Shown here in pieces: positions 3,097 through 59,242 of a stretch of DNA of 64,000 bases. Position numbers and translations under genes: made by a program. The stretch is from an uncultured Candidatus Saccharibacteria bacterium (lineage in GTDB: Bacteria; Patescibacteriota; Saccharimonadia; Saccharimonadales; CAZDQS01). Every line of letters starts with the position of its first letter. Position 1 is the first letter of the stretch. The DNA is taken from contig CAZDQS010000004.1 in the NCBI GenBank assembly GCA_964507855.1, forward strand, positions 14,888 to 78,887. Reading direction: 5' to 3'. The notes beneath the pieces are model-generated. The model made no database searches. It had not been told where the DNA came from and saw nothing but the letters and a program-made list of their open reading frames with translations.

Positions 3097-4578
3097 TTAT
3101 TCCTCGACTATCAAAGATGTGCGGGTCACAGCGCTTCGCGCGCTATCCGTAACCGACGGTGCGATATTGAACACAGCATTGTAATCCCGGTTGAAGAAGA
3201 TGCCTTCGGCCAGGCTGGTTGGTGCCAATGTCCTGAGATTAATACCGTCATAATCAAACACAATCGTCTTGCCTTCGCTGACCGCAACCAGCCTGTGTCC
3301 GTCCATCCACATCGCGCGCTGTGCTCCGTCCAGCGGCTTCTCGAGTTCATAGCGGTAGCTGCGCTCCGTCTCCATATCAAACACGGCGAAGCGATTACCT
3401 CCCTGGGCAACAGCAAAGCGGGCATTGTGCGAGAAGCTAACAAAGCTTGCCTCGTCGACACGTAAAATCGCAGTCGCATACGGTACCTTAGGCTCAGACT
3501 GCTTTATGAGTGGGAACGGATCCCGATAGAGGTAAGCTCTGTTGTCAGCCTTTGAGCCCGCAATGATATACCACTTGTTCTCAAAGCGCGCCATATCAAG
3601 CAAGTACGTGTCGCTCGGCGACAATGTCCTGAGCTGGAACGAGCCGTCGTTGTCACGCACCTTTACGCTCACTTTGCCCTCGGGCGCGTCCTTCTCCGTC
3701 ACATACACGACATACTGCTCATCATGCGACTTAAAGTCCAAAACACCTGTCAAAAACGGCTCGATTGACCGATCGCGCAGCTCGGCAGCTTCGAGAACGC
3801 CGGTCTCTTGATTATAGAAGTAATAGCGGTCATAGCGCTTGTCACGCAAAACCAGCTCCGTCGGTGTGCGGCCAAACGCTTGCGAAAGATTTATGCTCTC
3901 CTCTGGCTTGTCGCGGTCGATCAAGATATACTCGCGGCCACCCTCAAAAGCGTGCTCCAACACAAGATGTCTGTTATCCGTAGACCACTCAACCACCTTC
4001 AGCGAACGGCCAGCCTTATCTGTCGTCATGAGGTCGGCGGGGAGGGTTATCCGCTGCGGCTCCACATCTTCCTCGTTCATATCATAGACATCAAAATCTA
4101 CGAAGTTACCCGGCACCTGCACCAGCAACCACTGCCGGTTGGGGCTAGCGGTAGCAAGTGAAGGCGTAGTTGAATATTGGCCCACGTCTGCTGTCTTTAG
4201 ATCAACAGGAAAGAGGAAGGGATACACAAACCGCTCAATACTGCCGCCGATAAGCGTAAAATCGCGCGTCCACCAATGGTAACCTTCGCGCTGCAGCTCC
4301 AAACTATACCGCCCCTCGGGCAGGTTAATGCGTGTATCGGTCCGCGACGAATGCCGCTCGCCATTCAAGAAAATATCCGCGGCCTGCGGCTGGGCGGCAA
4401 TATATACCAACCCGTTCCGGGTAATCTGGCCATCCTTGCCAAGACTGTAGCCAAACGTCAGCGCAGCGAGCACCATTGACCCCAACCCAATCGCAACCCC
4501 GATAAGCACATAGCCCACCATCAATCGGTTGCGGTGCGCACGCTTTTTCTTCGGGTCAAGAAAATCCATTAGCATCAT
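3097..4578 (-). CDS. PEGA domain-containing membrane-anchored protein
   Basis: N-terminal TM helix followed by a PEGA-type motif (FLNGERHSSRTDTRINLPEGRYSLELQREGY) and a long beta-rich C-terminal region. Confidence 0.7.
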   Translation of the reverse strand: MMLMDFLDPKKKRAHRNRLMVGYVLIGVAIGLGSMVLAALTFGYSLGKDGQITRNGLVYIAAQPQAADIFLNGERHSSRTDTRINLPEGRYSLELQREGYHWWTRDFTLIGGSIERFVYPFLFPVDLKTADVGQYSTTPSLATASPNRQWLLVQVPGNFVDFDVYDMNEEDVEPQRITLPADLMTTDKAGRSLKVVEWSTDNRHLVLEHAFEGGREYILIDRDKPEESINLSQAFGRTPTELVLRDKRYDRYYFYNQETGVLEAAELRDRSIEPFLTGVLDFKSHDEQYVVYVTEKDAPEGKVSVKVRDNDGSFQLRTLSPSDTYLLDMARFENKWYIIAGSKADNRAYLYRDPFPLIKQSEPKVPYATAILRVDEASFVSFSHNARFAVAQGGNRFAVFDMETERSYRYELEKPLDGAQRAMWMDGHRLVAVSEGKTIVFDYDGINLRTLAPTSLAEGIFFNRDYNAVFNIAPSVTDSARSAVTRTSLIVEE

Positions 4579-6307: not shown

Positions 6308-7735
6308 ATGAATACTGTTCGCACCCGATTTGCACCGAGCCCGACGGGATATTTGCACGTTGGCGGTATCCGTACCGCGTTGTTTGCCTGGCTGGTCGCA
6401 CGCCAGGCAGGCGGCCAGTTTATCTTGCGCTTTGAGGATACTGACAAGAAGCGGGAAGTCGAAGGCGCCCGTGAACACCTTATAAAAAGCCTCCGTACCC
6501 TCGGTATGGAATATGACGAAGGTCCCGACAAGGGCGGCCCGTTTGCACCCTATGTCCAAAGCGAACGCCTGGACAGTTACAAGGTCTGGGCACAGAAGCT
6601 GATTGATGCCGGCCGCGCCTATGCCGACCCGTACACGCCTGAGGAAGTGCAGAAGTTCCGCGAACAGGCGCAAGCAGCAAAACGACCGTTCCTGTACCGC
6701 AACCACCGCCCCGAAAACCCGCCTGCGTGGGATGGCACACGACCCTTGCGTTTTAAGTCCGACCCGAAGCCTTACCGTTGGCACGACGAAGTCATGGGCG
6801 ATCTTTCAACCGGCCCAGAAGTCATTGACGACTTTATCCTTATCAAATCCGACGGTTACCCGACGTACAACTTCGCGCATATTATCGATGACGCAGAGAT
6901 GGAGATAACTCATGTCATCCGGGGCCAGGAGTTCCTGGCAAGCGTACCGAATTACCTCAACCTCTATGAAGCACTTGGCCTAACACCGCCTATCATGGCG
7001 ACCATGCCACACGTACTCGGCCCCGACGGCAAGAAAAAGCTCTCCAAGCGTGACGGCGCCAAGGATGTACTGGATTATGTCCGGGAAGGCTACTTGCCGG
7101 AAGCGCTTGTAAGCTTTATTGCAACCTTAGGCTGGAACGACGGCACCGAGCAAGAAGTCTTTACCGTCGAGGAACTGATTAAAAAATTCAGCCTCGACCG
7201 TGTCCAGAAGAGCGGCGCGCGCTTTGATGAGCGCCGCCTGCTGTGGGTAAACGGCCACTTTATCCGCGAGCTGCCGCTCGACGAATTGTACATCCGGGTT
7301 AAGGAGTACTGGCCGGAAGAATCTGCCAGCTTTGATGATGCATATAAAAAGAGTGTGCTGGCTCTCGTACAGGAACGCCTCAAATTCTTTGCCGAACTGC
7401 CTGAACTGACCCGGTTTTTCTTTACCGACTTGCCGCTAAACCCCGAGCTTATAGGCACTCACAAGCAGCTGAAAAAGCTGTCCGGCGAGGAGCTGAAATC
7501 ACTGCTTGAGCAAGCACGCGGGATTATTGCTGATAGCGACTTCAGCGCTGAAGAACTACAAAAAGACCTGAACGAACTACTGGAATCCACCGGCCAGAAG
7601 CCAGCCGTATTGTTCAGCCTTATCCGCATAGCCACCACTCAAAGCCCAGCTAGCCCCGGCCTCGCCGAAACGCTTGCAATCTTGGGTAAAGAAACCACGC
7701 TCCGCCGCATCGACGAGCAACTAGCTCAGCTCTAG
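6308..7735 (+). CDS. gltX: glutamate--tRNA ligase
   Basis: RFAPSPTGYLHVGG (HIGH-type) and KLSKRDG (KMSKS-type) class I signatures; full-length 475 aa. Confidence 0.95.
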   Translation: MNTVRTRFAPSPTGYLHVGGIRTALFAWLVARQAGGQFILRFEDTDKKREVEGAREHLIKSLRTLGMEYDEGPDKGGPFAPYVQSERLDSYKVWAQKLIDAGRAYADPYTPEEVQKFREQAQAAKRPFLYRNHRPENPPAWDGTRPLRFKSDPKPYRWHDEVMGDLSTGPEVIDDFILIKSDGYPTYNFAHIIDDAEMEITHVIRGQEFLASVPNYLNLYEALGLTPPIMATMPHVLGPDGKKKLSKRDGAKDVLDYVREGYLPEALVSFIATLGWNDGTEQEVFTVEELIKKFSLDRVQKSGARFDERRLLWVNGHFIRELPLDELYIRVKEYWPEESASFDDAYKKSVLALVQERLKFFAELPELTRFFFTDLPLNPELIGTHKQLKKLSGEELKSLLEQARGIIADSDFSAEELQKDLNELLESTGQKPAVLFSLIRIATTQSPASPGLAETLAILGKETTLRRIDEQLAQL

Positions 7736-7888
7736 CGCCTCGGTGGCAGCCTTAACGTCTGCTTGCAGCTCAGCAACCTGGATAGCAACAACCTCCAGTG
7801 CATCTTCAATGCCTGCAACTTTACCGAGCGCAAGGCAGGTGAGTTCATTAAGTTCCGGCAGCCGCCGGTATTTCAAATTCTCTTTCAT
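7721..7888 (-). CDS. possible small coiled-coil protein (55 aa from internal ATG MKENLKYRR...)
   Basis: ORF only; convergent 15-nt overlap with gltX stop; the longer 87-aa version runs into a GC-rich segment and is unlikely. Confidence 0.2.
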   Translation of the reverse strand: MKENLKYRRLPELNELTCLALGKVAGIEDALEVVAIQVAELQADVKAATEALELS

Positions 7889-8050
7889 AATAATCAGTTT
7901 GTTAGGTTGAGCATGAGGGTGGGGGACGAGTCGGGAAGGGGTAGCCAGATGGCGACCATCATCTTCCGCGAGCCGTCCGCCCACACCTCATGTGCCGGGA
8001 TTTCCGGCGCAGTAGCAGACTTGGCCGAAGCCGAGCCTTGATCGTGCAGG

Positions 8051-8995
8051 TCAGAGGTCGAGAGACAGAAGCGCAACAGCGCCGATCGCTCCCGCCTTCT
8101 CTCCGAACTGCGACAACTTGACGCTGGGCTTCTGTGCCATGGTCAGTTCGTCGCGAAGCCGAGCCTCCAGCTCCTCGAGGAGCCACGGCTGCTTGGCAGC
8201 GATGCCGCCGCTAAAGGTTACCAGCGGGACATCGAGGAGCATCAAGGCGTTCCGGATCCCCATAGTCATGAGGCCCAGAATCTCCTTCCACTCACGACCG
8301 CCAGGCTTCAGCGCCTCAGCCGGCTGTCCGTAAGTTGCCCTGATGCCGTTGCCGCCAACGGAGGCCTCGAGACACCCGTACTGGCCGCACTTACACTGAC
8401 GCTTGCCACCGAAGAAGACTCGCTGGTGTCCGATCTCCGTCGGCCAGACCTTCGGCCGCCCTTCGATGTGCCGAACGATCGCGCCGCCGACGCCGGTTCC
8501 CCAGATCATGCCGAGGAAGTCGTCTTCCTGACCAAAGCCGTAGACGGCGTCTGCGAGTGCGGCCGCTTCGGCATCGTTGCCGAACACCACGGGACACTGG
8601 TTGGCGTCGCGGAAATATTCCACGATTTGCACGCCGACCCAATGGGGCAGGTTGGCCGACCCAGCAAGGTGGGTTCGCTCCGGGCTAACCTTGCCGGCGA
8701 CGGCCAGGCCGATGCCCTCGACGGGTCCATAAAGGTCCGCGAGGTCATAGATGGCCCGCTGAATAGCCCAGAGGTCATTCATGCAGCCAATCTCGCCCTT
8801 GTCGAGCGTCCGCTCTCGGACTTCTCTGCGGTCCACCTCCACGCCTTTGTCACGCGAAGGGAAGACACCGATCTTGGCGCTCGTGCCGCCAACGTCAATT
8901 CCAAGGTACAAGGTATTCTCCTTGCTCGGGGGGTCAATGACCCATGAACCTGCACGTGAACGATCGACCTTGAGCTCCTCGGTAACGAGGGTCAA
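8051..8995 (-). CDS. ROK family sugar kinase (glucokinase-like)
   Basis: LGIDVGGTSAKIG ATP-binding motif and CKCGQYGCLEA zinc/ROK signature. GC3-rich codon usage unlike its neighbours. Confidence 0.85.
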   Translation of the reverse strand: MTLVTEELKVDRSRAGSWVIDPPSKENTLYLGIDVGGTSAKIGVFPSRDKGVEVDRREVRERTLDKGEIGCMNDLWAIQRAIYDLADLYGPVEGIGLAVAGKVSPERTHLAGSANLPHWVGVQIVEYFRDANQCPVVFGNDAEAAALADAVYGFGQEDDFLGMIWGTGVGGAIVRHIEGRPKVWPTEIGHQRVFFGGKRQCKCGQYGCLEASVGGNGIRATYGQPAEALKPGGREWKEILGLMTMGIRNALMLLDVPLVTFSGGIAAKQPWLLEELEARLRDELTMAQKPSVKLSQFGEKAGAIGAVALLSLDL

Positions 8996-9182
8996 AGTAT
9001 GATTATTTTATAATAATGTAAGCTTTTTATCAAGATTGGTGCAGTCCGCTACCAGCTTTGTACAACATAATAAAATGAGGTATTGCATGAAGAGAGCGGG
9101 GCCGGGAGGCGGAGAGGTGAAGGCTGGCGCGTGATGGCCAATCTTCAGCGCTCTCCGCCGCCGGCTCATCTCCCTGAAGCAG

Positions 9183-14513: not shown

Positions 14514-14768
14514 ATGAAAACAGCACAGTTGATCAACAAGGCAGTAGAAGTTAACTCTTTTTACTTCACCCAAGGAAAACAATTTAAGTCATTTCCGGCA
14601 CGCATTACTGTCGACAACCGTCAGTACGCGTTCCAGTCGGGCCTGCAAATGCTCATAGAGAAAGGCCAGCAGGCCATCCGGCTGTTCCAGATGACCGACG
14701 GCAGCGCGACTTACCGGATCAAGCAAGAGGGCGGCCAATGGGTGCTGCTCAGCATAGCAAGGGGGTAA
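14514..14768 (+). CDS. hypothetical protein (84 aa)
   Basis: ORF with strong SD (AAAGGAG) 8 nt upstream of the ATG. Confidence 0.5.
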   Translation: MKTAQLINKAVEVNSFYFTQGKQFKSFPARITVDNRQYAFQSGLQMLIEKGQQAIRLFQMTDGSATYRIKQEGGQWVLLSIARG

Positions 14769-14773
14769 TTCAT

Positions 14774-15172
14774 ATGGAAACGACTATGGATCCAAGACCG
14801 GTCAAACCGACCAAAAACAGTTGGGCTTTCGCGGTTGATTTAGGCCGCACAGTCGGGAGAAACAGCTCTCGATTCGGGCGTGCCGGACGCTCTCGCTTGA
14901 GCCGAGTTTCGGTGCGGCGGCGAGAAACGCAAGGGAGCCGTACAGGGAAGTACGGTGACCGCGTATCGAAGCCGACAAGCCGGAAATCGGCCAAGAGGAC
15001 AGCGGGGTCTCCGGCTTTGCCAGAGAGCAGACCGTCCGGCGAGAGTGTCCGGCGATGTGTCATTACGGCCTGTTCCAAGGAAGCCAAGGCTTTTGGCATC
15101 AAAGCCGGGATGCGCTACGAAGAAGCAAAAAGGCTCATCCCAGAACTGCGAATATTAATCTATAACCGCTAG
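14774..15172 (+). pseudogene. Y-family DNA polymerase N-terminal fragment carrying a palindromic insertion
   Basis: C-terminal 38 aa (RCVITACSKEAKAFGIKAGMRYEEAKRLIPELRILIYN) resemble the conserved N-terminal finger region of DinB/UmuC. The ORF stops after it, lacks the DxxxFF catalytic motif and contains family-1 element copy A. Confidence 0.35.
14883..15052 (+). repeat. family-1 GC-rich palindromic insertion element, copy A (170 nt)
   Basis: Terminal helix 14883-14896/15039-15052 (14 bp, one G.U); inner helix 14901-14912/14980-14991; core alignable to 17045-17185. Confidence 0.7.
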
Positions 15173-15188: not shown

Positions 15189-15536
15189 ATGGACTACGAA
15201 TTAGAACCAGTCGACGAGAGCGTCGGCACTTCAGTACACATGGGCTTCCCCAATGCTGCTGTAGACACACGCCTGACCGGCCTGGACATCAGCCAGCTGC
15301 TCATCAAGCGGCCGCACAGCACGTTCTTTATGCGCATATCGGGTAACCAGTGGAGCCGCGACGGCATATTTGACGGCGACATCGCTATCATCGACCGGGC
15401 GCTGAACCCGCAGGTGACCGACCTGGTCGTCTGGTGGCAGGAAGACAACGAGTTTGCTATCTCGCTCTTCAGCCGCGTGCGCAAAGGATGCCCGGTATGG
15501 GGGGTTGTCACGAACATAATCCACCAGTTCCGATGA
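15189..15536 (+). CDS. UmuD-like S24 peptidase-fold protein, catalytic residues substituted
   Basis: Aligns by eye to UmuD (GFPNAA..., DGDIAIIDR). The GDSM serine motif reads GNQW and the TVKK lysine position reads AISL. ATGA overlap with umuC. Confidence 0.75.
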   Translation: MDYELEPVDESVGTSVHMGFPNAAVDTRLTGLDISQLLIKRPHSTFFMRISGNQWSRDGIFDGDIAIIDRALNPQVTDLVVWWQEDNEFAISLFSRVRKGCPVWGVVTNIIHQFR

Positions 15537-16810
15537 AAACCCGCGTATTTGCACTCATAGATTGCAACAATTTTTTCGTCTCATGCGAAAGGATCTTCCG
15601 GCCAGACCTCGAAGGCAGGCCCGTTGTCGTACTGTCCAGCAACGACGGCTGTGCTGTCGCCAGGTCGAACGAAGCCAAGCGCCTCGGCATCCCCATGGGC
15701 GCACCCGCTTTCAAGTACCGGCAGCTGTTCGAGCGGGAAAGGGTCGTACGGTTCAGCGCCAACTTTGAGCTCTACAGCGATATCTCCCGGCGGATAACCC
15801 ATATACTTACTGAAGTTACGCCGCGTATTGAGATCTATTCTATTGATGAATCATTCCTAGACCTTTCGACGCTCGACATCCGTGATTATGAGGCATGGGG
15901 CAGGGCAGTGCGGACACGCATCCAGAAGGAGGTTGGCGTACCGGTTTCTGTCGGCATCGCACCCACCAAGACGCTCGCCAAGCTCGCCACCGAGTACGCC
16001 AAGCAGCATCCGGACTCCGGCGGCGCTACGTCATTCATAGACAAAGACCTGAAGCCCTACCGGCAGCATATTGCCCTGGAAGACATCTGGGGTATTGGCT
16101 GGCGCCTCGCGCCTCGCCTGCGGGCGCTTGGCCTCGCCACGGCCGATGACGTAGCCGGATTACGTCCACAGCTTGCCCAAAAGCTCATGGGTATCCACGG
16201 CCGCCAGCTGGTGTACGAGCTGAACGGCACGGCATGTTTTCCCATGGAACTCCTGCATCAAAAACCCAAGAGCATCGCCCGCACCCGTACCTTTGGCGAA
16301 GACACCCGGGAGTTTTATGTACTGGAGGCAGCTGTCGCTAACTTCGTCACCCAGGCCGCCTTCCGGCTGCGCCAGTCCGCCCAGCTGGCCCGCCGCTTAG
16401 GCCTATTCCTCTGCAGCAATAAACACAAACCCAATTACCAGATATGGAACCAAGAGGCGGTGTTCCAGGTACCGACAGCCGACACAGGACAGCTCATTTC
16501 CGCCGGCATCGCCTTGCTAACCGACATGTACGAGCCTACCACCGAATATCATCGGGCAGGGGTGTGGCTGCATGACTTTGTCCCTGCTGATCAACTTCAA
16601 ACCGACCTACTCGGCACCGTCGACGTGCGTGAACACGCCCGCGCCATGAGCCGCATGCAGGCCATCGACGGCATCAATAACCGCTACGGCCGCCGCACCA
16701 TCCGCTTCGCCGCCGAAGACCTCGCTCAGGCCTGGCAACCCAAACACGGCTTGCGCAGCCCCCGCTACGTTTCCACTTGGGAAGAGCTGCCACTCGCGCG
16801 TATAGTATAA
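15533..16810 (+). CDS. umuC: Y-family DNA polymerase (UmuC-type, Pol V catalytic subunit)
   Basis: FALIDCNNFFVSCERIF..., VLSSNDGCAVARSNEAKRLGI, SIDESFLD motifs. Start moved to the MKTRVF ATG overlapping the upstream stop. Confidence 0.9.
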   Translation: MKTRVFALIDCNNFFVSCERIFRPDLEGRPVVVLSSNDGCAVARSNEAKRLGIPMGAPAFKYRQLFERERVVRFSANFELYSDISRRITHILTEVTPRIEIYSIDESFLDLSTLDIRDYEAWGRAVRTRIQKEVGVPVSVGIAPTKTLAKLATEYAKQHPDSGGATSFIDKDLKPYRQHIALEDIWGIGWRLAPRLRALGLATADDVAGLRPQLAQKLMGIHGRQLVYELNGTACFPMELLHQKPKSIARTRTFGEDTREFYVLEAAVANFVTQAAFRLRQSAQLARRLGLFLCSNKHKPNYQIWNQEAVFQVPTADTGQLISAGIALLTDMYEPTTEYHRAGVWLHDFVPADQLQTDLLGTVDVREHARAMSRMQAIDGINNRYGRRTIRFAAEDLAQAWQPKHGLRSPRYVSTWEELPLARIV

Positions 16811-16821
16811 TCACCTCTGTT

Positions 16822-17622
16822 ATGAAAGCCACCGACCAGCTACTGGCAAAATATCCGCTTATTTCCGACCAAATTAGCCGGGAAGAGTTGGGCGTGGTTT
16901 TGCGGGAGTTGGAAACAACACTGCAGCAAAGTGTTCCTGGAACAGTGGTAGAGTTCGGCTGCTACAAGGGCACAACCAGTCTGTTTATCCGCCGACTGCT
17001 AGATTACTACAAGGATTCACACCGTACGGTCGGAGTACCTGCACTTGAGCCAAGTTTCGGTGCGGCGGCGAGGAACGCAAGCGAGGCGTACATGTCGTAC
17101 GGTGAGCGCGTACCGGAGCCGCCCAGCCGAAAATTGGCCAAGAGACCGGCAGAGTCTCTGGCTTTGCCAGAGAGCAGGCCGGACGGTGCAGGTACTCCGA
17201 GGGAGTTCCATGCGTATGATTCTTTCGAAGGCTTGCCACCCAAGAGCAGGGAAGACCAGAGTGCCGCCGGCGTGGATTTCACAGCTGGCGAACTCGCGAT
17301 CAGTAAAAAGCAATTTCTGAAAGAATTCCACAAAGCAGGATTGCAACCACCTATCACGCATAAGGGCTGGTTCAATGAGCTTTCCGATAAGGATATCCCA
17401 GAAGAAATTGCCTTTGCGTTCCTCGATGGGGATTTTTATGGTTCCATCAGGGATTCGTTGCAGCTCGTTTGGCCGCGGCTGCACGAGCAGGGGGTGATAT
17501 TGATTCATGACTACAAGCGTGAGACGCTGCCCGGGGTAGAGAAGGCGGTGCACGAGTTTCTGCAGGACAAACCGCACCGCCTGAGGTACGAACACAATAT
17601 TGCGATTGTGGCGCAATCTTAA
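16822..17622 (+). CDS. TylF/MycF-type class I SAM-dependent methyltransferase with a 59-codon in-frame insertion
   Basis: VEFGCYKGTTS (SAM-binding loop), DSFEGLP, LDGDFYGS, ILIHDY motifs; insertion between ...KDSHR and EFHAYDSFEG. Confidence 0.8.
   Translation: MKATDQLLAKYPLISDQISREELGVVLRELETTLQQSVPGTVVEFGCYKGTTSLFIRRLLDYYKDSHRTVGVPALEPSFGAAARNASEAYMSYGERVPEPPSRKLAKRPAESLALPESRPDGAGTPREFHAYDSFEGLPPKSREDQSAAGVDFTAGELAISKKQFLKEFHKAGLQPPITHKGWFNELSDKDIPEEIAFAFLDGDFYGSIRDSLQLVWPRLHEQGVILIHDYKRETLPGVEKAVHEFLQDKPHRLRYEHNIAIVAQS
17030..17200 (+). repeat. family-1 GC-rich palindromic insertion element, copy B (171 nt)
   Basis: Perfect 15-bp terminal helix 17030-17044/17186-17200; inner helix 17049-17060/17127-17138; central CGTAC hairpin. 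Confidence 0.75.
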
Positions 17623-18097: not shown

Positions 18098-18144
18098 TTG
18101 AAAGTACCAAAGTAAAAACCGGAGGCTAGCTCCGGTCATTACTT

Positions 18145-18299
18145 TGGTGACCTCACGGGGAATACAGGTATAATCCGCCCGTTTGCCAGCACGCTGGCGG
18201 GGGATTATCGAACCACCTGGGATTCGATTCCGTTTCTCGGCGAGAAACTACCAATGAAAAACACCCACCAAAAGAGTGGGTGCCTTTCATTGGTGACCC
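18145..18299 (-). repeat. 155-bp direct repeat, distal copy (starts with the 3'-terminal 19 nt of tRNA-Glu)
   Basis: 150 of 155 positions identical to 19168-19322. On the minus strand it reads terminator hairpin, three further hairpins, then ATTCCCCGTGAGGTCACCA. Confidence 0.85.
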
Positions 18300-19090: not shown

Positions 19091-19167
19091 ATATTCTCCT
19101 TTATTCTCCTTATGCTCGTTTATAACATGAATGAAATAAAAAAGCACTTGTTAAAGTACTCAATCAT

Positions 19168-19322
19168 TGGTGACCTCACGGGGAATACAGGTATAATCCG
19201 CCCGTTTGCCAGCACGCTGGCGGGGGATTATCGAACCGCCTGGGGTTCGATTCCGTTTCTCGGTGAGAAACTACCAATGAAAAACACCCACCTGAAGAGT
19301 GGGTGCCTTTCATTGGTGACCT
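19168..19322 (-). repeat. 155-bp direct repeat, tRNA-proximal copy
   Basis: See 18145-18299. Its last 9 nt (19314-19322) are the real 3' end of tRNA-Glu. Confidence 0.85.
19276..19313 (-). terminator. Rho-independent terminator directly after tRNA-Glu
   Basis: Minus strand: GGCACCCAC-TCTTCAG-GTGGGTG followed by TTTTTC. Confidence 0.7.
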
Positions 19323-19388
19323 CACGGGGAATCGAACCCCGATTGCCAGGATGAGAACCTGGTGTCCTAACCGTTAGACGATGAGGCC
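19314..19388 (-). tRNA. tRNA-Glu (anticodon CTC)
   Basis: Manual cloverleaf: GGCCTCA/TGAGGTC acceptor (one G.U), D arm GTCT-AACGGTTA-GGAC, anticodon arm CCAGG-TTCTCAT-CCTGG, T arm CGGGG-TTCGATT-CCCCG, encoded ACCA. Confidence 0.92.
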
Positions 19389-24856: not shown

Positions 24857-26377
24857 ATGAAAAAATTACCCATCGTAGCCATCGTCGGACGAGCGAATGT
24901 TGGCAAGTCCAGCTTGTTTAACGCCATCCTGGAGCGGCGTGAGGCAATTGTTGCCGACGAGCCAGGCACGACCCGCGATGCCATCACCGCCAAAGCAACT
25001 ATCTGGAGTCGAGAAAGCGAGACGAAATCCTCGCCGCATTTGGATGGAGCGCAAGGCGAAGGCGAGCAGCGGACCGAGGCGTATACGAAATACGACGAGG
25101 GAGCAGCACAGCCTTCCACGCAGCGATCCGCCAAAAATGCCAGCAGGGTTGACGGCTCTGCAGGCAAGCAGGCTGGTATGGTGCGGCAGGATTTCTGGCT
25201 CGTGGATACGGCCGGTATGAAAACGGCCGAAGATGACTTCGAGCTCACTATCCAAGAGCAGATTATGGAAGCGGCCGCAGCAGCCGATATCATCTTGGTC
25301 GTTATCGAAGCACACGTGACAATCACTGAAGAGGACCGCCGGGTCGCCAAGCTAGCCTTAAAGAGCAAAAAGCCGGTAATTCTCGTCGTCAATAAGGCCG
25401 ACAAGTCTCGCGGTGCTGCTCCAGAAGACTACCTTCGCCTCGGCATCAAAGAAATCTATCTCACCAGCACGACACAACGCGATGGTATCGATGACCTGCT
25501 TGAGGGTTTAAGTGATCAATTGCCCCAAGCTACCCTCCAGGAGGCCAGCGACCGCCTGCACATTGCAATCCTGGGCCGTCCGAACGTCGGCAAATCCCGG
25601 CTCTTCAACACGCTTGCCAAGAAACAGCAGGCAATCGTCGCCGACCGTGCCGGCACAACCCGCGACATTAACCGCACGACGGTGCGCTATCACGGCAGGG
25701 AAATCGAAATTATGGATACCGCCGGTATTCGCCGCAGCGGCAAAATCGAGCAGGGCGTGGAGCGGTTCAGTGTCATCCGGTCCTTAAGCGCCATCGAACA
25801 AGCCGACATCTGCCTCTTGCTCCTCGACGTTAATGAGCTAAGCACAGCGCTTGATCAAAAAATCGCCGGCATGATCAAAGAAGCCGGCAGAGGTCTGGTC
25901 CTCGTCGTCAGCAAGTGGGACTCGCTTGAAGAAAAGACACCCTTTAGTCGCGACCAAATCGCCCCCGAAATACAAGCCAGCTTTGAGTTCGTACCGTGGG
26001 CACCGCTCGTATTTACAAGCTCTGTCACCGGCCAAAACGTCACCAAGCTCTTCGAACTTGCGCTCGAAATAGACGAACGTCGCAAGCAACAGATAAAGAC
26101 CACCGAATTAAACCGCTGGCTTCGCCAGGTAGTAGACAAGCATCCGCCGGCCGGCCTCAAGAACCGCCAGCCCAAACTCAACTACATGGTACAAGAGGAC
26201 AATCCCATCCCGTCATTCCGCGTCTACGGCGCGCACACGAAGTTCCTCCACTGGTCATACAAGCGTTTTATGGAGCGAGACTTCCGCGAGCACTATGACT
26301 ACATTGGCTCACCGGTCAAATTCTGGTTCATCGAAAAACACGAAACGCACAAGCACGGCCAAGCGCCTCGCAAATAG
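24857..26377 (+). CDS. der: ribosome-associated GTPase Der (EngA) with a ~58-codon in-frame insertion in GTPase domain 1
   Basis: Two G domains (GRANVGKSSLFN ... DTAG ... NKAD; GRPNVGKSRLFN ... DTAGIR ... SKWD) plus KH-like C-terminus. Extra segment between ATIW and FWLVDTAG. Confidence 0.92.
   Translation: MKKLPIVAIVGRANVGKSSLFNAILERREAIVADEPGTTRDAITAKATIWSRESETKSSPHLDGAQGEGEQRTEAYTKYDEGAAQPSTQRSAKNASRVDGSAGKQAGMVRQDFWLVDTAGMKTAEDDFELTIQEQIMEAAAAADIILVVIEAHVTITEEDRRVAKLALKSKKPVILVVNKADKSRGAAPEDYLRLGIKEIYLTSTTQRDGIDDLLEGLSDQLPQATLQEASDRLHIAILGRPNVGKSRLFNTLAKKQQAIVADRAGTTRDINRTTVRYHGREIEIMDTAGIRRSGKIEQGVERFSVIRSLSAIEQADICLLLLDVNELSTALDQKIAGMIKEAGRGLVLVVSKWDSLEEKTPFSRDQIAPEIQASFEFVPWAPLVFTSSVTGQNVTKLFELALEIDERRKQQIKTTELNRWLRQVVDKHPPAGLKNRQPKLNYMVQEDNPIPSFRVYGAHTKFLHWSYKRFMERDFREHYDYIGSPVKFWFIEKHETHKHGQAPRK
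25024..25195 (+). repeat. family-1 palindromic insertion element, diverged copy C (172 nt)
   Basis: Terminal helix 25024-25038/25182-25195 (14 bp, one bulge). Core shares CGCAAG, GAGGCGTA-hairpin-TACG, GCCAA and GCCAG..AGCAGG..GACGG blocks with copies A and B. Confidence 0.6.
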
Positions 26378-41077: not shown

Positions 41078-41425
41078 TCAGTTCTGTACTGTGCCGCTTG
41101 GTGCGACGGACACAAGGTTCTTGGCGGCCTCGCTCTCCTTAACCCTATCCAGCGCCTGCAAGCGCGCCGCGGTCACTTCCAATTCATCATGCTCTTCTTT
41201 GAGCGTCGCTTGCTGGTTCTGCAGCTCGCTGATGCGGTAACCATACGCATTGGTCTTCGTCACTTGCGTGAGATACAAAAGACCAAGCAGACATGCCAAA
41301 ATAATAAGGAGTACCGTGTTGCTGATAGGGCCAAGTGTCCGTTCGTGCGTCCGGAAGCTTGTCGTGTTCTGGTTACGCGCTGCGTAGCGCTGGCGGTTCA
41401 ATGCCATTGAACTAGAGTATGTCAT
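41078..41425 (-). CDS. FtsL/septum-formation-initiator-like small bitopic protein
   Basis: TM (ISNTVLLIILACLLGLLYL) followed by a coiled coil (ELQNQQATLKEEHDELE); lies between rsmH and ftsI. Start set at MTYSS because the longer ORF merely translates a CAAAAA repeat. Confidence 0.6.
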   Translation of the reverse strand: MTYSSSMALNRQRYAARNQNTTSFRTHERTLGPISNTVLLIILACLLGLLYLTQVTKTNAYGYRISELQNQQATLKEEHDELEVTAARLQALDRVKESEAAKNLVSVAPSGTVQN

Positions 41426-41745
41426 AGATGCCTTTTGTTTTTGTTTTTGTTTTGGTCCAGTGGTGAGCTTTTGATGGCTCACCACTGGGCTGGTCGCATA
41501 CTACAGTACTTTTACTCGTACCTTGTATGCCCGGGAGCTGCTTTTTACCTGGATAGGCATGGAGCTCTCCTTTGTTTTTTAGTTCTTAGCAATGCAGCTG
41601 GATGCGATACAAGGAAGAAGCGAAGCCCGCACCGAGCTGTACATGAGGTACAGCGAGGGAGGACTAGAGCTTCTGACGCAGTAGCGCGCCAGCAGTCCTG
41701 GCAAGCTTTCGGGCTTTGCCCGAAAATTGACAGGACGGTGCATTG

Positions 41746-42648
41746 TTAAGGTTTTTGTTTTGCTGCGGCCCGAAGCTTAGCGCTCCGTGCTCGCGGATTA
41801 AAAACTATTTCCTTACTATCGCCGCTGACAGGACTCTTAGTGAGTATCCGAAGCTCGGCATCATAGCGGTCCCCGCCGTGCTCGGCAAAGAACTGTTTGA
41901 CAATACGATCTTCCAAGCTATGGAAGCTGATTATTGCCAACCTGCCCCCTGGCGCAAGCAATTCAAGCCACAGTGGCAATGCCTGCTCCAACTGGCCCAG
42001 CTCGTCGTTGACGGCAATCCGAAGCGCCTGGAAGACACGGGTCGCTGGATGAATCTTGTGCTTCCCTGTCCTTGGCGGCCGGACGGCTGCAGCGATAATA
42101 TGCGCAAGTTCCGTGGTCGTAGATATTGGTCGGTGCTCAATAATTGCAGCGGCAATACGTTTCGCGTGAGGATCTTCGCCGTAGCGGCGGAATATGTCCA
42201 CCAGTTCGGCTTCACCATACGTGTTGACGATGTGCTCGGCAGTCAATTGCTGCCGGTTATCCATCCGCATATCGAGCGGCCCTTCCTGGGAAAAGGAAAA
42301 ACCACGGTCTGCATTGTCAAGGTGCGGTGACGACACGCCCAAATCGGCCAGGATAAGATCGAAGCGGTTCCCTTCTCCGACAAGTTGCTTGGCAGCATCC
42401 AGATAATGCATATGCACTATCCGCACGCCAGTGCCCGCGAACTTATCGGCCAACACTTTGACCGCTTGCTCGTCCCGATCAACCAGGACAGCGCCTTCGC
42501 TGTTTTTTGTACGCGCCAACACTTCAGAAGCGTGCCCACCGTAACCGGCCGTCGCATCGAGGTACGTTTCACCTCTTTGCGGGTCCAGGTACTGTAACAC
42601 TTCTTCTAGTAGTACCGGCACATGATATGGTTGTGACTGGTTTACCAT
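41746..42648 (-). CDS. rsmH: 16S rRNA (cytosine1402-N4)-methyltransferase
   Basis: HVPVLLEEV, DATAGYGGHA, DLGVSSPHLD, SFHSLEDRIVK motifs. Confidence 0.93.
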   Translation of the reverse strand: MVNQSQPYHVPVLLEEVLQYLDPQRGETYLDATAGYGGHASEVLARTKNSEGAVLVDRDEQAVKVLADKFAGTGVRIVHMHYLDAAKQLVGEGNRFDLILADLGVSSPHLDNADRGFSFSQEGPLDMRMDNRQQLTAEHIVNTYGEAELVDIFRRYGEDPHAKRIAAAIIEHRPISTTTELAHIIAAAVRPPRTGKHKIHPATRVFQALRIAVNDELGQLEQALPLWLELLAPGGRLAIISFHSLEDRIVKQFFAEHGGDRYDAELRILTKSPVSGDSKEIVFNPRARSAKLRAAAKQKP

Positions 42649-43168
42649 CCTACTAAGGATAGCAAACCCTTTCTTTTTGTTTTGGTGAATCTTGCTTTTT
42701 GTTTTTGTTTTTGTTTTGGCAAGGTCACCTAACCAGCAGTCAACTTTTTGTTTTTTGGAATGTTTTTGTTTTTGTTTATATCCGGTGAGGCGCCGGATAT
42801 GGATATCCTAGGGGCGAATGGTGAAGATCTTACGAGAGGCTTAATGATAAGCCTAATCTTCGCCGGCCCGCAGGATAAAAGTTTGAGAGACTTTGTGTGA
42901 GGTGGAGTTTTGGGAGGTGTTTTGTAGTGGAAGGTACAAAGGTGTTTTTATGTGGTGACTTCGATCCACATGTTGACTGCCGATTAGCTAACCTCGCATG
43001 GCTTACGAGACACCCATTCTGGGTTTCTCGTCGCGCCGGGCAGTCGACTGAATCGTCTGCTCGGGCTGCTCTTCCCGGCCTGTGGACGGGGAAAGCTTCA
43101 CCCGTTCCGGGCACAAATCGTGCCTTGTGGTGCTAATCGGTTTTGCTTGATTGTTAAAGAACTGCCCG

Positions 43169-48877: not shown

Positions 48878-49116
48878 CCATGGCTAGCTTGCCCAGGCTC
48901 TGCCGGCTCCTGATACGGCGAGTGTCAAAACCACAATTTCTGCGAAGGACGTGTTTGACGGCTTTTCCTTCCTTGAAGAATTAAGAAAGAAAAGCCGGAG
49001 TTGTCCGAAGCATTGTGGCTTTTGACGACGAGCGTATCAAGAGCTGGTAGCTGCCTGCCATTTCTTTGCCTCCTTTCTTGTTGGCACAAGAAAGGAGGTC
49101 GCTCCAGCCGGAACGG
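48878..49116 (+). repeat. family-2 structured intergenic repeat, copy R1 (239 nt)
   Basis: Aligns end to end with 56129-56367. Nested helices include CTGCCGGCTC/GAGCTGGTAG, GTCAAAACCACAAT/ATTGTGGCTTTTGAC and CCTCCTTTCTTG/CAAGAAAGGAGG. Confidence 0.8.
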
Positions 49117-56128: not shown

Positions 56129-56367
56129 CCTTGGCTGATTTGGCCAGGCTCTTCCAGCTCCTGATGGACGAGTGTCAAAGCGACAATTTCTGCGCAGGAC
56201 GTGTTTGACGGCTTTTCCTTCATTAGAAAATTAGAAAAGAAAAGCCGGAGTTGTCCGGAGCATTGTCGCCTTTGACGACGAGGCCATAACGAGCTGGAAG
56301 CTGCCTGTTGCTTCTTTGCATACTTTCTTGTCAACACAAGAAAGTATGTTGGGACAAGCCGGAACGG
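56129..56367 (+). repeat. family-2 structured intergenic repeat, copy R2 (239 nt)
   Basis: Helices CTTCCAGCTC/GAGCTGGAAG, GTCAAAGCGACAAT/ATTGTCGCCTTTGAC, GGCTTTTC/GAAAAGCC and CATACTTTCTTG/CAAGAAAGTATG. Confidence 0.8.
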
Positions 56368-56378
56368 ATTGGCCGAAA

Positions 56379-57686
56379 CTATAAAGCTATCTTGCTTTTG
56401 AGTTCTTCAACCTTCACACGCTCTTGCTCAGTAGTATCGCGATTACGAACCGTAACCGTTCCGTCTTCCAAAGTATCAAAATCAATCGTCACGCAATACG
56501 GCGTGCCGATTTCGTCCTGTCGGCGATATCTTTTACCTATGTTGCCATTGTCATCCCACATGACCGCGCCAAACTCGTCCTTCAGCATCTTGTAGACTTC
56601 TCTGGCCTTTTCCACCAGCTCGGGCTTGTTCTTCAGCAGCGGCGAAACCGCAACTTTAACTGGGGCTAGGTGCGCGGGCAACTTGAGATACACGCGCTTT
56701 TCGCCATTAACTTCATCTTCCGTGTAGGCGCTGACCAGTACGGCCATGAGAGCGCGCTCCACGCCGAATGACGGCTCGATGACATGCGGCACAAACGGCT
56801 CGCCGCCGTCCTTAGGCCTATACTCCATGTTTTTGCCGGATGACTTCTGGATGTTCATAAGATCAAAGTCCGTGCGGTACGCCAGGCCCAAGAGTTCCTT
56901 GCGGCCGATTGGATAATCAAACTCAAAGTCAATTGTGCGCTTGCTGTAATGCGCGCGCTCCTCGTCCGGCACTTCCAGCTCGTGAACCTTGTCCTTTGGA
57001 AGCCCGATGGCTTCCAGGTAGGCGTAAATATCCTTTACCCAACTCTCAAAAGATTCTTTCCACTTGTCCGGATGGACAAAGTACTCGATCTCCATCTGCT
57101 CGAACTCGCGTGAGCGGAAGACAAAATCCCGCGGAGAGATTTCGTTACGGAAGGCCTTACCAATCTGGGCGATACCAAACGGCATGTCAGGATAAAAGCT
57201 ATCTACGACGTTCTTGAAGTTCGTAAAAATACCCTGTGCAGTCTCCGGCCGTAGATAACTAACCGAAGCTTCGTCATCAACCGGCCCGACATTTGTCTTG
57301 AACATCATATTGAACTGGCGGGCTTCGCTAAACGTATCGGTCTTGCCGCACGTTGGACATTTGCTGGTGTCAATTTGGTCTTCGCGGAAGCGGGATTTGC
57401 AGTTGGAGCACTCCACCAGCGGATCGGTGAACGTATCCACGTGGCCGCTGGCCTGCCAGACTTTCTGATTCATCAAAATTGCCGCGTCCACGCCATACAT
57501 GTCTTCCCTGTCGTCAACAAACATCTTCCACCACAGGTCCATGATGTTGCGCTTCAAGGCAACGCCAAGCGGGCCGTAGTCCCACGTACCACTTAAGCCG
57601 CCGTAAATCTCGGAGCCTTGGTAAATAAACCCGCGCCGCTTACACAAGCTAACAATATCTTCTAGAGAAACTTCATCTTTTGCCAT
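56379..57686 (-). CDS. glyQS: glycine--tRNA ligase (homodimeric class II type)
   Basis: RGFIYQGSEIYGGLSGTWDYGPLG, FRNEISPR (motif 2), EPSFGVERA (motif 3); C-terminal anticodon-binding domain. Confidence 0.95.
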   Translation of the reverse strand: MAKDEVSLEDIVSLCKRRGFIYQGSEIYGGLSGTWDYGPLGVALKRNIMDLWWKMFVDDREDMYGVDAAILMNQKVWQASGHVDTFTDPLVECSNCKSRFREDQIDTSKCPTCGKTDTFSEARQFNMMFKTNVGPVDDEASVSYLRPETAQGIFTNFKNVVDSFYPDMPFGIAQIGKAFRNEISPRDFVFRSREFEQMEIEYFVHPDKWKESFESWVKDIYAYLEAIGLPKDKVHELEVPDEERAHYSKRTIDFEFDYPIGRKELLGLAYRTDFDLMNIQKSSGKNMEYRPKDGGEPFVPHVIEPSFGVERALMAVLVSAYTEDEVNGEKRVYLKLPAHLAPVKVAVSPLLKNKPELVEKAREVYKMLKDEFGAVMWDDNGNIGKRYRRQDEIGTPYCVTIDFDTLEDGTVTVRNRDTTEQERVKVEELKSKIAL

Positions 57687-57886
57687 ATATGACCTTACTT
57701 ACTGTATCTGTTTCAGCTTACACTAGCCACCTTCGGCCTGCAAATGCCATACCGCTCATTCATCGTACCTTTCAGGTACGCCTCACTCACCTGATAGCAT
57801 TTTCGGCTCGAACTTTGGCTAGTTCACTAATAAAACCGATACAGGAAGCAAGGACTGCAAATTATATCTGGAATTGATACAAAAAC

Positions 57887-58579
57887 CTAGGCTCGCAAAA
57901 ACTGCTGGGCCATGGACCGCACCAGCTGGCTTCCCCGCTGGAGCACGCTGTCGATATCCTTCACCTGGCCCAAAACTTCCGGCGAATCAATCCCGAACAC
58001 CAGGCGCAGGAACTTTATGTGATTGGCGGTGTACATCCCCTGCTCATGCGGAATGAACGCCATGTTCTCCAGATCAAACGTGTATAACGTACCGACATCG
58101 AGCTTCTGACCCGTAGCGTCGGTGCGGAGGTTCGGCTGGTGTCCAGCAAGTTTGAGCAGCTGCGCGTCAAACCAAGCAGTCAAAAGTTCCGGCGGTAAAT
58201 TGCTATCATCAAGCCCCTCAAACGTAGCGCTGAGCAGATCAAAATATTCCCGGCCGGCAGCATCTTCCGTTGATTTGTTGAGGCGCTTGATAAGCTCATA
58301 GCCGAGCATCGTCCGGCTAATATCTTTCACAATGTTGCCGAAGTGACGGTGCAGTCTCGTAGATACGAGCGTACCAATCTCGCCCTTGCCCGGGATAAAG
58401 CTTAGTTCCGAAATGCTGAATAATTCAATCCCGCCCGCCAGCTTGCTTGTGCTCTTTCGCACACCCTTGGCCATAAGCCGCAGCTTGCCGTGGTCGGGCG
58501 TTAAGACGGTCAAAATACGGTCCGCCTCGCCGAAGTCCGTGCGGAACAGGATGATACCGTGGGTAAGGATTTGTTTCAT
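57887..58579 (-). CDS. recO: DNA repair protein RecO
   Basis: GIILFRTDFGEADRILTVLTPDHGKLRLMAKGVRKSTSKL (OB-fold N-terminus). Start at MKQIL, with a 4-nt overlap on the upstream regulator stop. Confidence 0.88.
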   Translation of the reverse strand: MKQILTHGIILFRTDFGEADRILTVLTPDHGKLRLMAKGVRKSTSKLAGGIELFSISELSFIPGKGEIGTLVSTRLHRHFGNIVKDISRTMLGYELIKRLNKSTEDAAGREYFDLLSATFEGLDDSNLPPELLTAWFDAQLLKLAGHQPNLRTDATGQKLDVGTLYTFDLENMAFIPHEQGMYTANHIKFLRLVFGIDSPEVLGQVKDIDSVLQRGSQLVRSMAQQFLRA

Positions 58580-58962
58580 TGTGACGCTGGAGCCAACACA
58601 CTTTCGACGCACTGCACCAGCCGCCGCAACTTCGTGGTGGGCTTGTATAAATACTGCTTTACCCCGAGTTCATGCCACAACGTCGTATCAAGCCCGGGGT
58701 TGCTGGCGGGCAAACCGGTCAGTAGGATGACTGGAACCTCTTGCCAGTCAGCATAGGAGCGAAACTCATAGAGGAACTCGATGCCATTATGCCCAGGAAG
58801 CTGCATTTCCAGCACCACCACGTCCGGTGTGGCACTATCAGCAACATGAATAGCAGCTTGCGCTGACGCAGCGTGCATCACCTCGTGGCCCCCACCCTCT
58901 AAAGCGGCTGTATACGTATGCGCTAGTACAGGATCCGGTTCAACTAACAACACCCTCGTCAT
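58576..58962 (-). CDS. single-domain response regulator (CheY-like receiver)
   Basis: VLLVEPD, DVVVLEMQLPGHNGIEF, LLTG and K in LYKP receiver motifs. Confidence 0.85.
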   Translation of the reverse strand: MTRVLLVEPDPVLAHTYTAALEGGGHEVMHAASAQAAIHVADSATPDVVVLEMQLPGHNGIEFLYEFRSYADWQEVPVILLTGLPASNPGLDTTLWHELGVKQYLYKPTTKLRRLVQCVESVLAPASQ

Positions 58963-59004: not shown

Positions 59005-59242
59005 GCTTCGCTTGGCCGGTGACCTACTTTCTTGTGTCAACAAGAAAGCTAGGCAAAGAAATGACGGGCAGCTGCAGCCACGTAATGCATCTGTTGGTAA
59101 AAAAGTAGCTTGCCTCGGCAACTCACCACCTATTGTGCCACCGGCACAATAGGTGCCTCAGACACTCCGAGGAAGCCAAGCGCGCTACTTTATTACAACA
59201 TCTGCTCAGGTGGCTCGCAGAGCCCGAACAAACCAGCCATGG
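59005..59242 (-). repeat. family-2 structured repeat, copy R3 (238 nt, inverted orientation, diverged interior)
   Basis: Reverse complement starts CCATGGCTGGTTTGTTCGGGCTCTGCGAGCC and ends with the hairpin CCTAGCTTTCTTG/CAAGAAAGTAGG. It keeps the family helices with different sequences (CTGCGAGCC/GGCTGCAG). Confidence 0.7.

Follow-up and report, generated by a model that had tools for sequence, protein, structure and literature searches.

A Saccharibacteria family of in-frame palindromic elements with a conserved core and a locus-specific closing helix

Rickettsia palindromic elements (RPEs) are palindromic repeats of ~150 bp that occur between genes and, unusually often, in frame within unrelated housekeeping genes, and the RPE-derived peptide is compatible with the fold of its host protein (PMC10969869). 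Here we describe an element with similar habits in a 64,000-nt stretch of an uncultured Candidatus Saccharibacteria genome (contig CAZDQS010000004.1, assembly GCA_964507855.1), which we call the window and within which all positions are counted. The element appears to represent a family not described before, from Saccharibacteria and other Patescibacteria, and one of its copies, B, lies in frame in a gene for a TylF/MycF-type O-methyltransferase. Like RPEs, it is a multi-copy palindromic repeat: 171-nt hairpin units are present in the window as four intact copies (A–D, all on the + strand) and one decayed copy (− strand). Like RPEs, it has entered unrelated housekeeping genes in frame, here in ~20 protein families, and both occur in the reduced genomes of host-dependent bacteria. 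The differences are that it belongs to another phylum, that its fold is not a simple palindrome but a Y-shaped three-way junction, strand-asymmetric and with very strong covariation, that its closing helix is locus-specific, and that the fold has been kept at an orthologous site. Protein searches with the insert peptides gave only copies of the element and showed no sequence or peptide relationship to RPEs; any relationship is by analogy.

Other mobile and inserted sequences offer further comparisons. Hairpin MITEs (miniature transposable elements with inverted repeats) such as ERIC, Correia/NEMIS, and BOX are also small, non-autonomous repeats that form RNA or DNA hairpins and are sometimes intragenic. 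They have conserved terminal inverted repeats, are recognised by a DDE transposase and leave a direct target duplication of fixed size, whereas in our element conservation is lowest at the termini, which are not the same in paralogous copies, and it is the interior that is conserved. IS200/IS605 with PATE, and REP/REPIN with RAYT, rely on recognition of folded single-stranded DNA from one strand, with neither terminal inverted repeats nor direct target duplication. A strand-specific folded substrate is what our element resembles too: it has a G-U/A-C asymmetry, the four intact window copies share one orientation, and B also folds well as DNA (z = −9.3 with DNA parameters). However, no Y1/HUH gene was seen near element copies (39 loci), the core architecture is unrelated, and those systems build no locus-specific closing helix. 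Integron attC sites are recombined as a folded single strand whose sequence can vary if pairing is kept, but their ends (R and L boxes) are conserved and their centre is variable, the reverse of what we see; no integrase or cassette context was found around the element, and the genes that host it have housekeeping functions. In yeast mitochondria, the mobile GC clusters and byp elements are GC-rich palindromic inserts that land in protein-coding genes, but they are far shorter, and byps are skipped by the ribosome and need not preserve the frame, whereas our element keeps it and is stop-free. Inteins have at least ~130 residues with conserved blocks; the inserts described here have 57–59 residues, are read in varied frames and are predicted to be disordered. 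We interpret the family as a non-autonomous, structure-dependent mobile element resembling RPEs, translated where this is tolerated, and we put the probability of this reading at roughly one in two.

Copy B has the following parts. A unit is the core plus both arms of the closing helix, the element strand is the strand given in the window, and scores come from a covariance model (CM) built from 19 element copies (R1 scores, in bits).

17030-17200, + strand: copy B, 171-nt unit, in frame in the TylF/MycF-type O-methyltransferase gene (16822-17622); CM R1 158.5 bits
17030-17043, + strand: 5' arm of the closing helix, TCGGAGTACCTGCA; 14 ungapped pairs with 17187-17200, then no pairing
17044-17186, + strand: conserved core, 143 nt; 83% identical to the core of copy A, with covariation
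17187-17200, + strand: 3' arm of the closing helix, TGCAGGTACTCCGA; perfectly complementary to the 5' arm

The core of B comprises a long arm with the apical motif CGAG-GCGTACA...GTACGG-TGAG, the junction GCCAAGAG, and a short arm with a GGCTTTGCC loop. The last bases of the 3' arm overlap the codons directly preceding the conserved REFHAYDSFEG. Folded as RNA, B reaches −106.6 kcal/mol against a shuffle mean of −67.2 (z = −8.3), and 0/200 shuffles are as good. The TylF-type protein containing B has 266 aa, compared with 195–239 aa in 119/119 of the other homologues among the matches listed (2666 homologues at E <= 1e-10). Alignment with its closest homologues puts 58 extra residues after the helix that ends in ...LLDYYKDS and before REFHAYDSFEG. 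The sequence-only reading that drew attention to this gene had proposed an insert of 59 extra codons at 17026-17202; the insert and its position are borne out, with the unit read at 17030-17200, and the count becomes 58, differing by which of two Arg residues is taken as native. AlphaFold2 is confident for the remainder of the protein and gives residues 70–123, between the helix 51–66 and the strand 129–133, a predicted local distance difference test score below 50, which predicts that the 58 extra residues form a disordered loop.

The fold of the element is a Y-shaped three-way junction: from the closing helix branch a long arm (~95 nt, broken by internal loops) and a short arm (~40 nt), and motifs in the internal loops and at the apex are conserved. 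Covariation was assessed over 50 base pairs in the first 26 CM matches, with partners slid by 1–3 columns and 500 shuffles as controls. Standard pairs occupy 92.8% of cells, against 34–39% in the slid controls, double-sided changes are found at 42/50 pairs, and 0/500 shuffles reach the observed values. Among paired cells, G-U/U-G (77, with one conserved G.U in the apical motif) outnumber A-C/C-A (23), and the fold therefore belongs to the given strand, as RNA or single-stranded DNA.

With the CM, 43 full-length copies were recovered from ~35 loci, almost all of which belong to Candidatus Saccharibacteria or other Patescibacteria. A degenerate sequence pattern derived from copies B, C, and D matched 23 metagenome contigs and 19 species-representative genomes; nearly all of these genomes are Candidatus Saccharibacteria, the remaining ones being labelled Peribacteria, Kaiserbacteria, 'Patescibacteria group', and, in one case, a 'Gammaproteobacteria' bin. 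Copies are present in many independent assemblies (NCBI, JGI, ENA, Logan). Rfam 15 gave no family matching the element, either over the whole window at the gathering threshold or for B, D, and one other copy (L008) at an E-value threshold; labels of this kind denote loci or contigs of other assemblies with element matches or orthologous sites. Text searches of the literature found no description of such an element, and the B peptide, used as query against 5.8 billion proteins in a word-indexed search, gave no match. The analogy with RPEs, proposed together with the remark that no equivalent was known in the Candidate Phyla Radiation (CPR), stands.

Two further observations concern the make-up of the family. 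Five loci from Peribacteria and other bins (L010, L011, L013, L045, and L053) carry a variant class with a shorter long arm and an extra junction hairpin, GCCCGAAGGGGC, and score only 38–54 bits with the CM. Pairs in opposite orientation on a single contig also occur, one ~100 nt apart (L038, 1217-1389 on the − strand and 1492-1661 on the + strand), the other in L047 (1703-1875, −; 4076-4248, +).

At the DNA level, the coding hosts identified in the window are TylF, Der, and a UmuC fragment; other loci contribute GlmS, Dus (three loci), Xth, LigA, TruB, and Tgt (antisense). An exhaustive HMMER search with the 57-residue peptide of copy C returned 51 cluster representatives, and the long ones among them extend the hosts to PrmC, FolD, Ogt (two representatives), DHFR, MsrA, NrdR, and the C-terminal region of UmuC, together with an RluA-type synthase, a TsaB/D-like protein, and an S1-domain protein. 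In-frame host families number ~20. In every sense host examined at the DNA level, the 3' end of the unit lies 0–2 codons from a highly conserved motif (GHTRW, KVGHTGTLDP, FWLVDTAG, FFMDIKMDG, KPVVYCGD, PLIAQIWG, or EFHAYDSFEG). Inserts sit beside catalytic motifs of housekeeping proteins (including Der, GlmS, LigA, TruB, Xth, DHFR, FolD, and MsrA), with consequences for gene calling, for statistics of protein length, and for structure prediction in these organisms.

The eight independent coding insertions all have a unit of 171 or 174 nt, whereas the 27 non-coding copies range from 168 to 177 nt, with remainders of 0, 1, and 2 after division by three in 13, 6, and 8 copies. Coding copies are always open, and the sense frames of non-coding copies are open in only 4/81 cases. 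Selection therefore acts on both a length divisible by three and the purging of stops, an argument for translation of the inserts. The same nucleotide unit is read in at least two frames, and also occurs antisense and between genes. The net insert is +57 (Der in L030), +58 (TylF), and +59 aa (Der) relative to close orthologues, and +47 (FolD), +51 (MsrA), +53 (GlmS), +56 (DHFR), +61 (Tgt), and +70 aa (Xth) relative to solved homologues, centring on 57 aa, i.e., 171 nt.

The other three intact copies of the window are needed for comparison with B.

14882-15053, + strand: copy A, 172-nt unit, inside a 144-aa open reading frame (ORF; 14738-15172); CM 145.7 bits
25025-25195, + strand: copy C, 171-nt unit, in frame in der (24857-26377), directly before FWLVDTAG; CM 142.3 bits
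41583-41752, + strand: copy D, intergenic, between an ftsL-like gene (41078-41485, −) and rsmH (41746-42648, −); CM 148.9 bits, also found with nhmmer

A and C fold like B (z = −7.7 and −3.7, respectively), and the homology between the cores of A and B was detected independently by a repeat search, blastn, and nhmmer. Across copies the core is 143 ± 2 nt long and the closing helix has 14 ± 1 ungapped pairs, beyond which pairing drops to background. The consensus of the closing helix is weak: it is strongest beside the core (..YTYGCA on the 5' side, TGCRAR.. on the 3' side) and falls to ~0–1 bit per position at the termini. Orthologous Der pairs have core identities of 0.71–0.78 and closing-helix identities of 0.64–0.89, whereas in paralogous pairs core identities of 0.68–0.83 go with closing-helix identities of only 0.18–0.54. 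For A and B the values are 0.83 and 0.32, and homology starts and ends exactly at the core boundaries. The sequence of the closing helix belongs to the locus, not to the core. A conserved core with a copy-specific helix had been noted from the window alone, and the wider comparison upholds it: the helix is conserved between orthologues and unrelated between paralogues of equal core identity.

At some loci, the 3' arm also encodes conserved residues of the host. In GlmS it encodes the S-V-G-V-G of the conserved GxGHTRW, before HTRW, and in Der it encodes a conserved D-F; the 3' arm of D resembles the empty-site sequence in L014, within a T-rich tract. Such cases suggest that host sequence makes up some or all of the 3' arm, of which the 5' arm would be an inverted copy. 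In Xth and Tgt, there is little overlap between unit and host codons. A 3' arm wholly of host origin, with the 5' arm as its inverted copy, would suit GlmS and possibly Der and D but is a poor fit for L030, Xth, and Tgt; insertion of the whole unit would suit L030 and the modal +57 aa but not GlmS. Neither was adopted as a general account, and protein alignments do not place the junctions. We also rejected a pre-existing palindrome or terminator as the target, as the empty Der sites (L024 and L025) and the empty rsmH-ftsL site (L014) have no palindrome. The 10–20 nt between host sequence and 5' arm held no consistent direct or inverted copy of the flank and no shared motif, and neither a T-run after the units nor a direct target duplication flanking them was consistent. 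Comparing D with the empty site in L014 allows a direct duplication of ~8 nt, but in a T-rich, low-complexity tract, and this comparison is ambiguous because a T-rich motif, TTTTGTTTTTGTTTTTGTTTTGG (A-rich on the gene strand), recurs in the spacers of the dcw cluster (41429-41455, 41737-41763, and 42693-42719).

Evidence for mobility comes from presence and absence. The D site is empty in the rsmH-ftsL spacer of L014, a related genome with a copy elsewhere, the TylF homologues listed lack B, and most Der homologues are empty. Exact-protein look-ups for strain-level polymorphism returned the same strain only. The family is polymorphic in presence/absence, asymmetric between strands, and tolerated in frame.

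Among 120 Der homologues scored for loop length, 92 are empty with a 16-residue loop, 9 are full (72–80 residues) with a homologous insert, and 19 have other insertion lengths (17–50 and 99 residues), most of them remnant-like; many lineages retain only shortened remnants of 1–34 extra residues. Copies orthologous to C were found in L023 and L027–L030. Across the six Der copies, which occupy one site in different species, 94% of cells are paired (33–38% in slid controls), with double changes at 32/50 pairs in both the closing helix and the internal helices. Some of these compensatory changes replace amino acids, e.g., CGG to CAA paired with GCC to GTT. Selection in situ, repeated re-invasion, and arm-to-arm correction by template switching are alternative explanations for this maintenance of the fold. 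In the L030 copy, the closing helix is shifted by two codons and the sequence is nearer to non-Der copies, which points to a probable second, independent entry into this loop. Congruence of the Der and element trees is uninformative, since at 0.67–0.74 identity the Der proteins form a star-like tree.

L029 also carries a second copy (7336-7513, +) that overlaps the start of der (7495-9021) and is present only in L029. Translation starts at the ATG within the 3' end of its core (..ATGG), so that the protein begins with MARKSK rather than MSKK.

These comparisons also bear on the wider claims of the sequence-only reading. That the unit is an insert rather than a native loop agrees with the absence of B from the TylF homologues listed, and of the element from 92/120 Der homologues and from the rsmH-ftsL site of L014. 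Selection on nucleotide structure and on an open frame had been proposed together: the former is seen in strong covariation, including that among the six Der copies, and the latter in the multiple-of-three length of 8/8 coding insertions and their purged stops. The reading would have been undermined by a lack of further copies or of covariation, and many copies and strong covariation were found; the only orthologues that share the segment are Saccharibacteria Der, where it is homologous at the level of nucleotide structure.

As to how the element might move, we infer a single-stranded intermediate, a trans-acting enzyme, and the making of the closing helix on integration. The core would act as a recognition scaffold for the putative enzyme, which would copy or move the element as single-stranded nucleic acid, and the closing helix would be rebuilt, at least partly, from local sequence at every integration. 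One possible route is that the core is joined as a loop to one end of a broken target duplex, with an offset nick at a fixed 14 bp then producing an inverted duplication of target sequence. Copies survive between genes and at gene ends; within genes, they survive only if their length is a multiple of three, they are stop-free, and they lie in a surface loop, where they would be translated as ~57 disordered, hydrophilic residues. A stricter version, in which only the 143-nt core is copied (as a single strand), the 14-bp helix is made from the target, by its inverted duplication, via a hairpin-capped intermediate, and the fold is then selected at the locus, is offered as a tentative possibility. 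If it were true, locus-level selection on the fold would imply a function beyond transposition.

Several observations weigh against this reading of a mobile element with a rebuilt helix. No transposase, reverse transcriptase, or HUH gene recurs in the 39 loci around copies, and the enzyme is therefore hypothetical. The closest pair of copies is 83% identical and near-identical copies were not found, so there is no sign of recent bursts. The closing-helix contrast rests mainly on a single clearly unsaturated pair, A and B, which are 2.1 kb apart and might be homogenised by gene conversion. The boundary between host and insert inside the closing helix could not be fixed; net sizes against reference proteins scatter over 47–70 aa, and L030 fits insertion of a whole 171-nt unit in which neither arm comes from the host. 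Among coding copies, 8 are sense and 1 is antisense, even though the antisense frames of non-coding copies are open more often (25/81) than their sense frames (4/81); this would reflect either better tolerance of the hydrophilic sense peptide or a directional mechanism. The fold maintenance among six Der orthologues is not predicted for a purely selfish, decaying insert. Some of these points would suit an ordinary MITE- or RPE-type repeat, in which the closing helix travels along with the core and drifts fast as only its pairing matters, with nothing rebuilt; locus specificity would then be only apparent, a product of saturation and of core-limited gene conversion between A and B. A helix consensus that is strongest beside the core is what a decayed ancestral stem would leave, most paralogous core identities (0.68–0.75) are near the constraint plateau, and both the entire unit in L030 and the centring of net sizes on 57 aa fit such a repeat. 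We nevertheless consider it doubtful: A/B homology ends exactly at the core boundaries (0.32 for the helix, 0.83 for the core), while the internal helices, equally free to vary, are nearly identical in A and B; in GlmS and Der, codons conserved in the host fall within the 3' arm; and the units show no consistent direct duplication of the target.

A further alternative is a functional structured RNA module (for example, protein-binding or regulatory) that is selected by the host, has spread to many transcripts, and now acts at the RNA level, its mobility being old. Compensatory evolution in the orthologous Der copies, the G-U/A-C asymmetry, and motifs that are conserved across metagenome-assembled genomes of Saccharibacteria and other Patescibacteria with peripheral variants, like those of true RNA families, all speak for such a module, as does a derived copy that forms the glyQS leader, its base apparently paired with the Shine-Dalgarno sequence. 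Against it, copies lie in either orientation relative to neighbouring genes (antisense in Tgt and in at least seven intergenic cases), no promoter was found adjoining D, the Der copy has shrunk to remnants in many lineages, and most orthologous genes do without the element, so we regard this explanation as unlikely. A small intron-like element removed from RNA, with the closing helix joining the exon ends for cleavage and ligation, is far less probable still. The closing helix does juxtapose the flanks and takes in exon bases at some loci, the 3' end lies 0–2 codons from conserved motifs as is often the case for homing introns and inteins, and the fold is maintained in situ in Der, but an intron needs neither a multiple-of-three length nor purged stops, and 8/8 coding insertions show both. 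Moreover, the antisense Tgt copy is still open, intergenic copies are numerous, none of the Rfam ribozyme or intron families matches, and 171 nt is below the size known for group I and II introns. A native loop or domain of the host proteins, to which the conservation of the peptide in several Der orthologues might point, is refuted by the occurrence of one nucleotide unit in at least two frames, antisense, and in intergenic DNA, by covariation at the base-pair level, and by the lack of a fold for the insert in AlphaFold2; an assembly artefact is likewise refuted by copies in many independent assemblies.

If the mobile-element reading is right, the family would be the first described CPR counterpart of the Rickettsia in-frame palindromic elements, and in-frame colonisation of essential genes would be a recurrent feature of reduced, host-dependent genomes. 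A fixed-length, locus-specific helix combined with RNA-like covariation of the core would then give a handle on a possibly new integration chemistry. The compensatory evolution in Der also raises the question of whether a mobile insert can gain a fold-dependent role inside a coding sequence.

The sequence-only reading had counted three copies in the window, which falls short of the four intact copies and one decayed copy found with nhmmer and the CM. Its observation that B and C share peptide blocks holds. Copy A had been described as shifted in frame, to which we give little weight because its host ORF (14738-15172, +), which the copy interrupts, covers no more than the N-terminal portion of a Y-family polymerase and is probably a gene remnant. 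This ORF is directly upstream of an intact pair of umuD-like (15189-15536) and umuC-like (15533-16810) genes. Copy D is antisense to both the ftsL-like gene and rsmH, and the rsmH stop codon lies within its 3' arm.

57682-57834, − strand: decayed fifth copy, in the 5' leader of glyQS; CM 14.4 bits, E = 0.15

The decayed copy has kept the long arm and lost the short arm. The glyQS leader (57687-57886, −), between a recO-like gene (57887-58612) and glyQS (56379-57686), is a long hairpin (z = −6.6) with the GAG-GCGUAC...GUACG-AUGA motif of the element at its apex, and its base appears to pair with the Shine-Dalgarno sequence. It looks like a decayed element copy, possibly co-opted as a leader. 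A T-box at this position was considered and is unsupported, as Rfam matches neither a T-box nor any other family.

Two direct repeats of other kinds are also present in the window, both on the + strand. One, of 155 nt (18144-18298 and 19167-19321), is 97% identical between copies 1023 nt apart in a low-GC stretch (0.45), and its second copy ends inside a tRNA-Glu gene (19314-19388, −); it may mark a small integrated segment. The other, of 181 nt (48919-49099 and 56169-56349), is 84% identical and has at its end a palindromic motif, CTTTCTTGT..ACAAGAAAG, which is found again, inverted, at 59021-59048.

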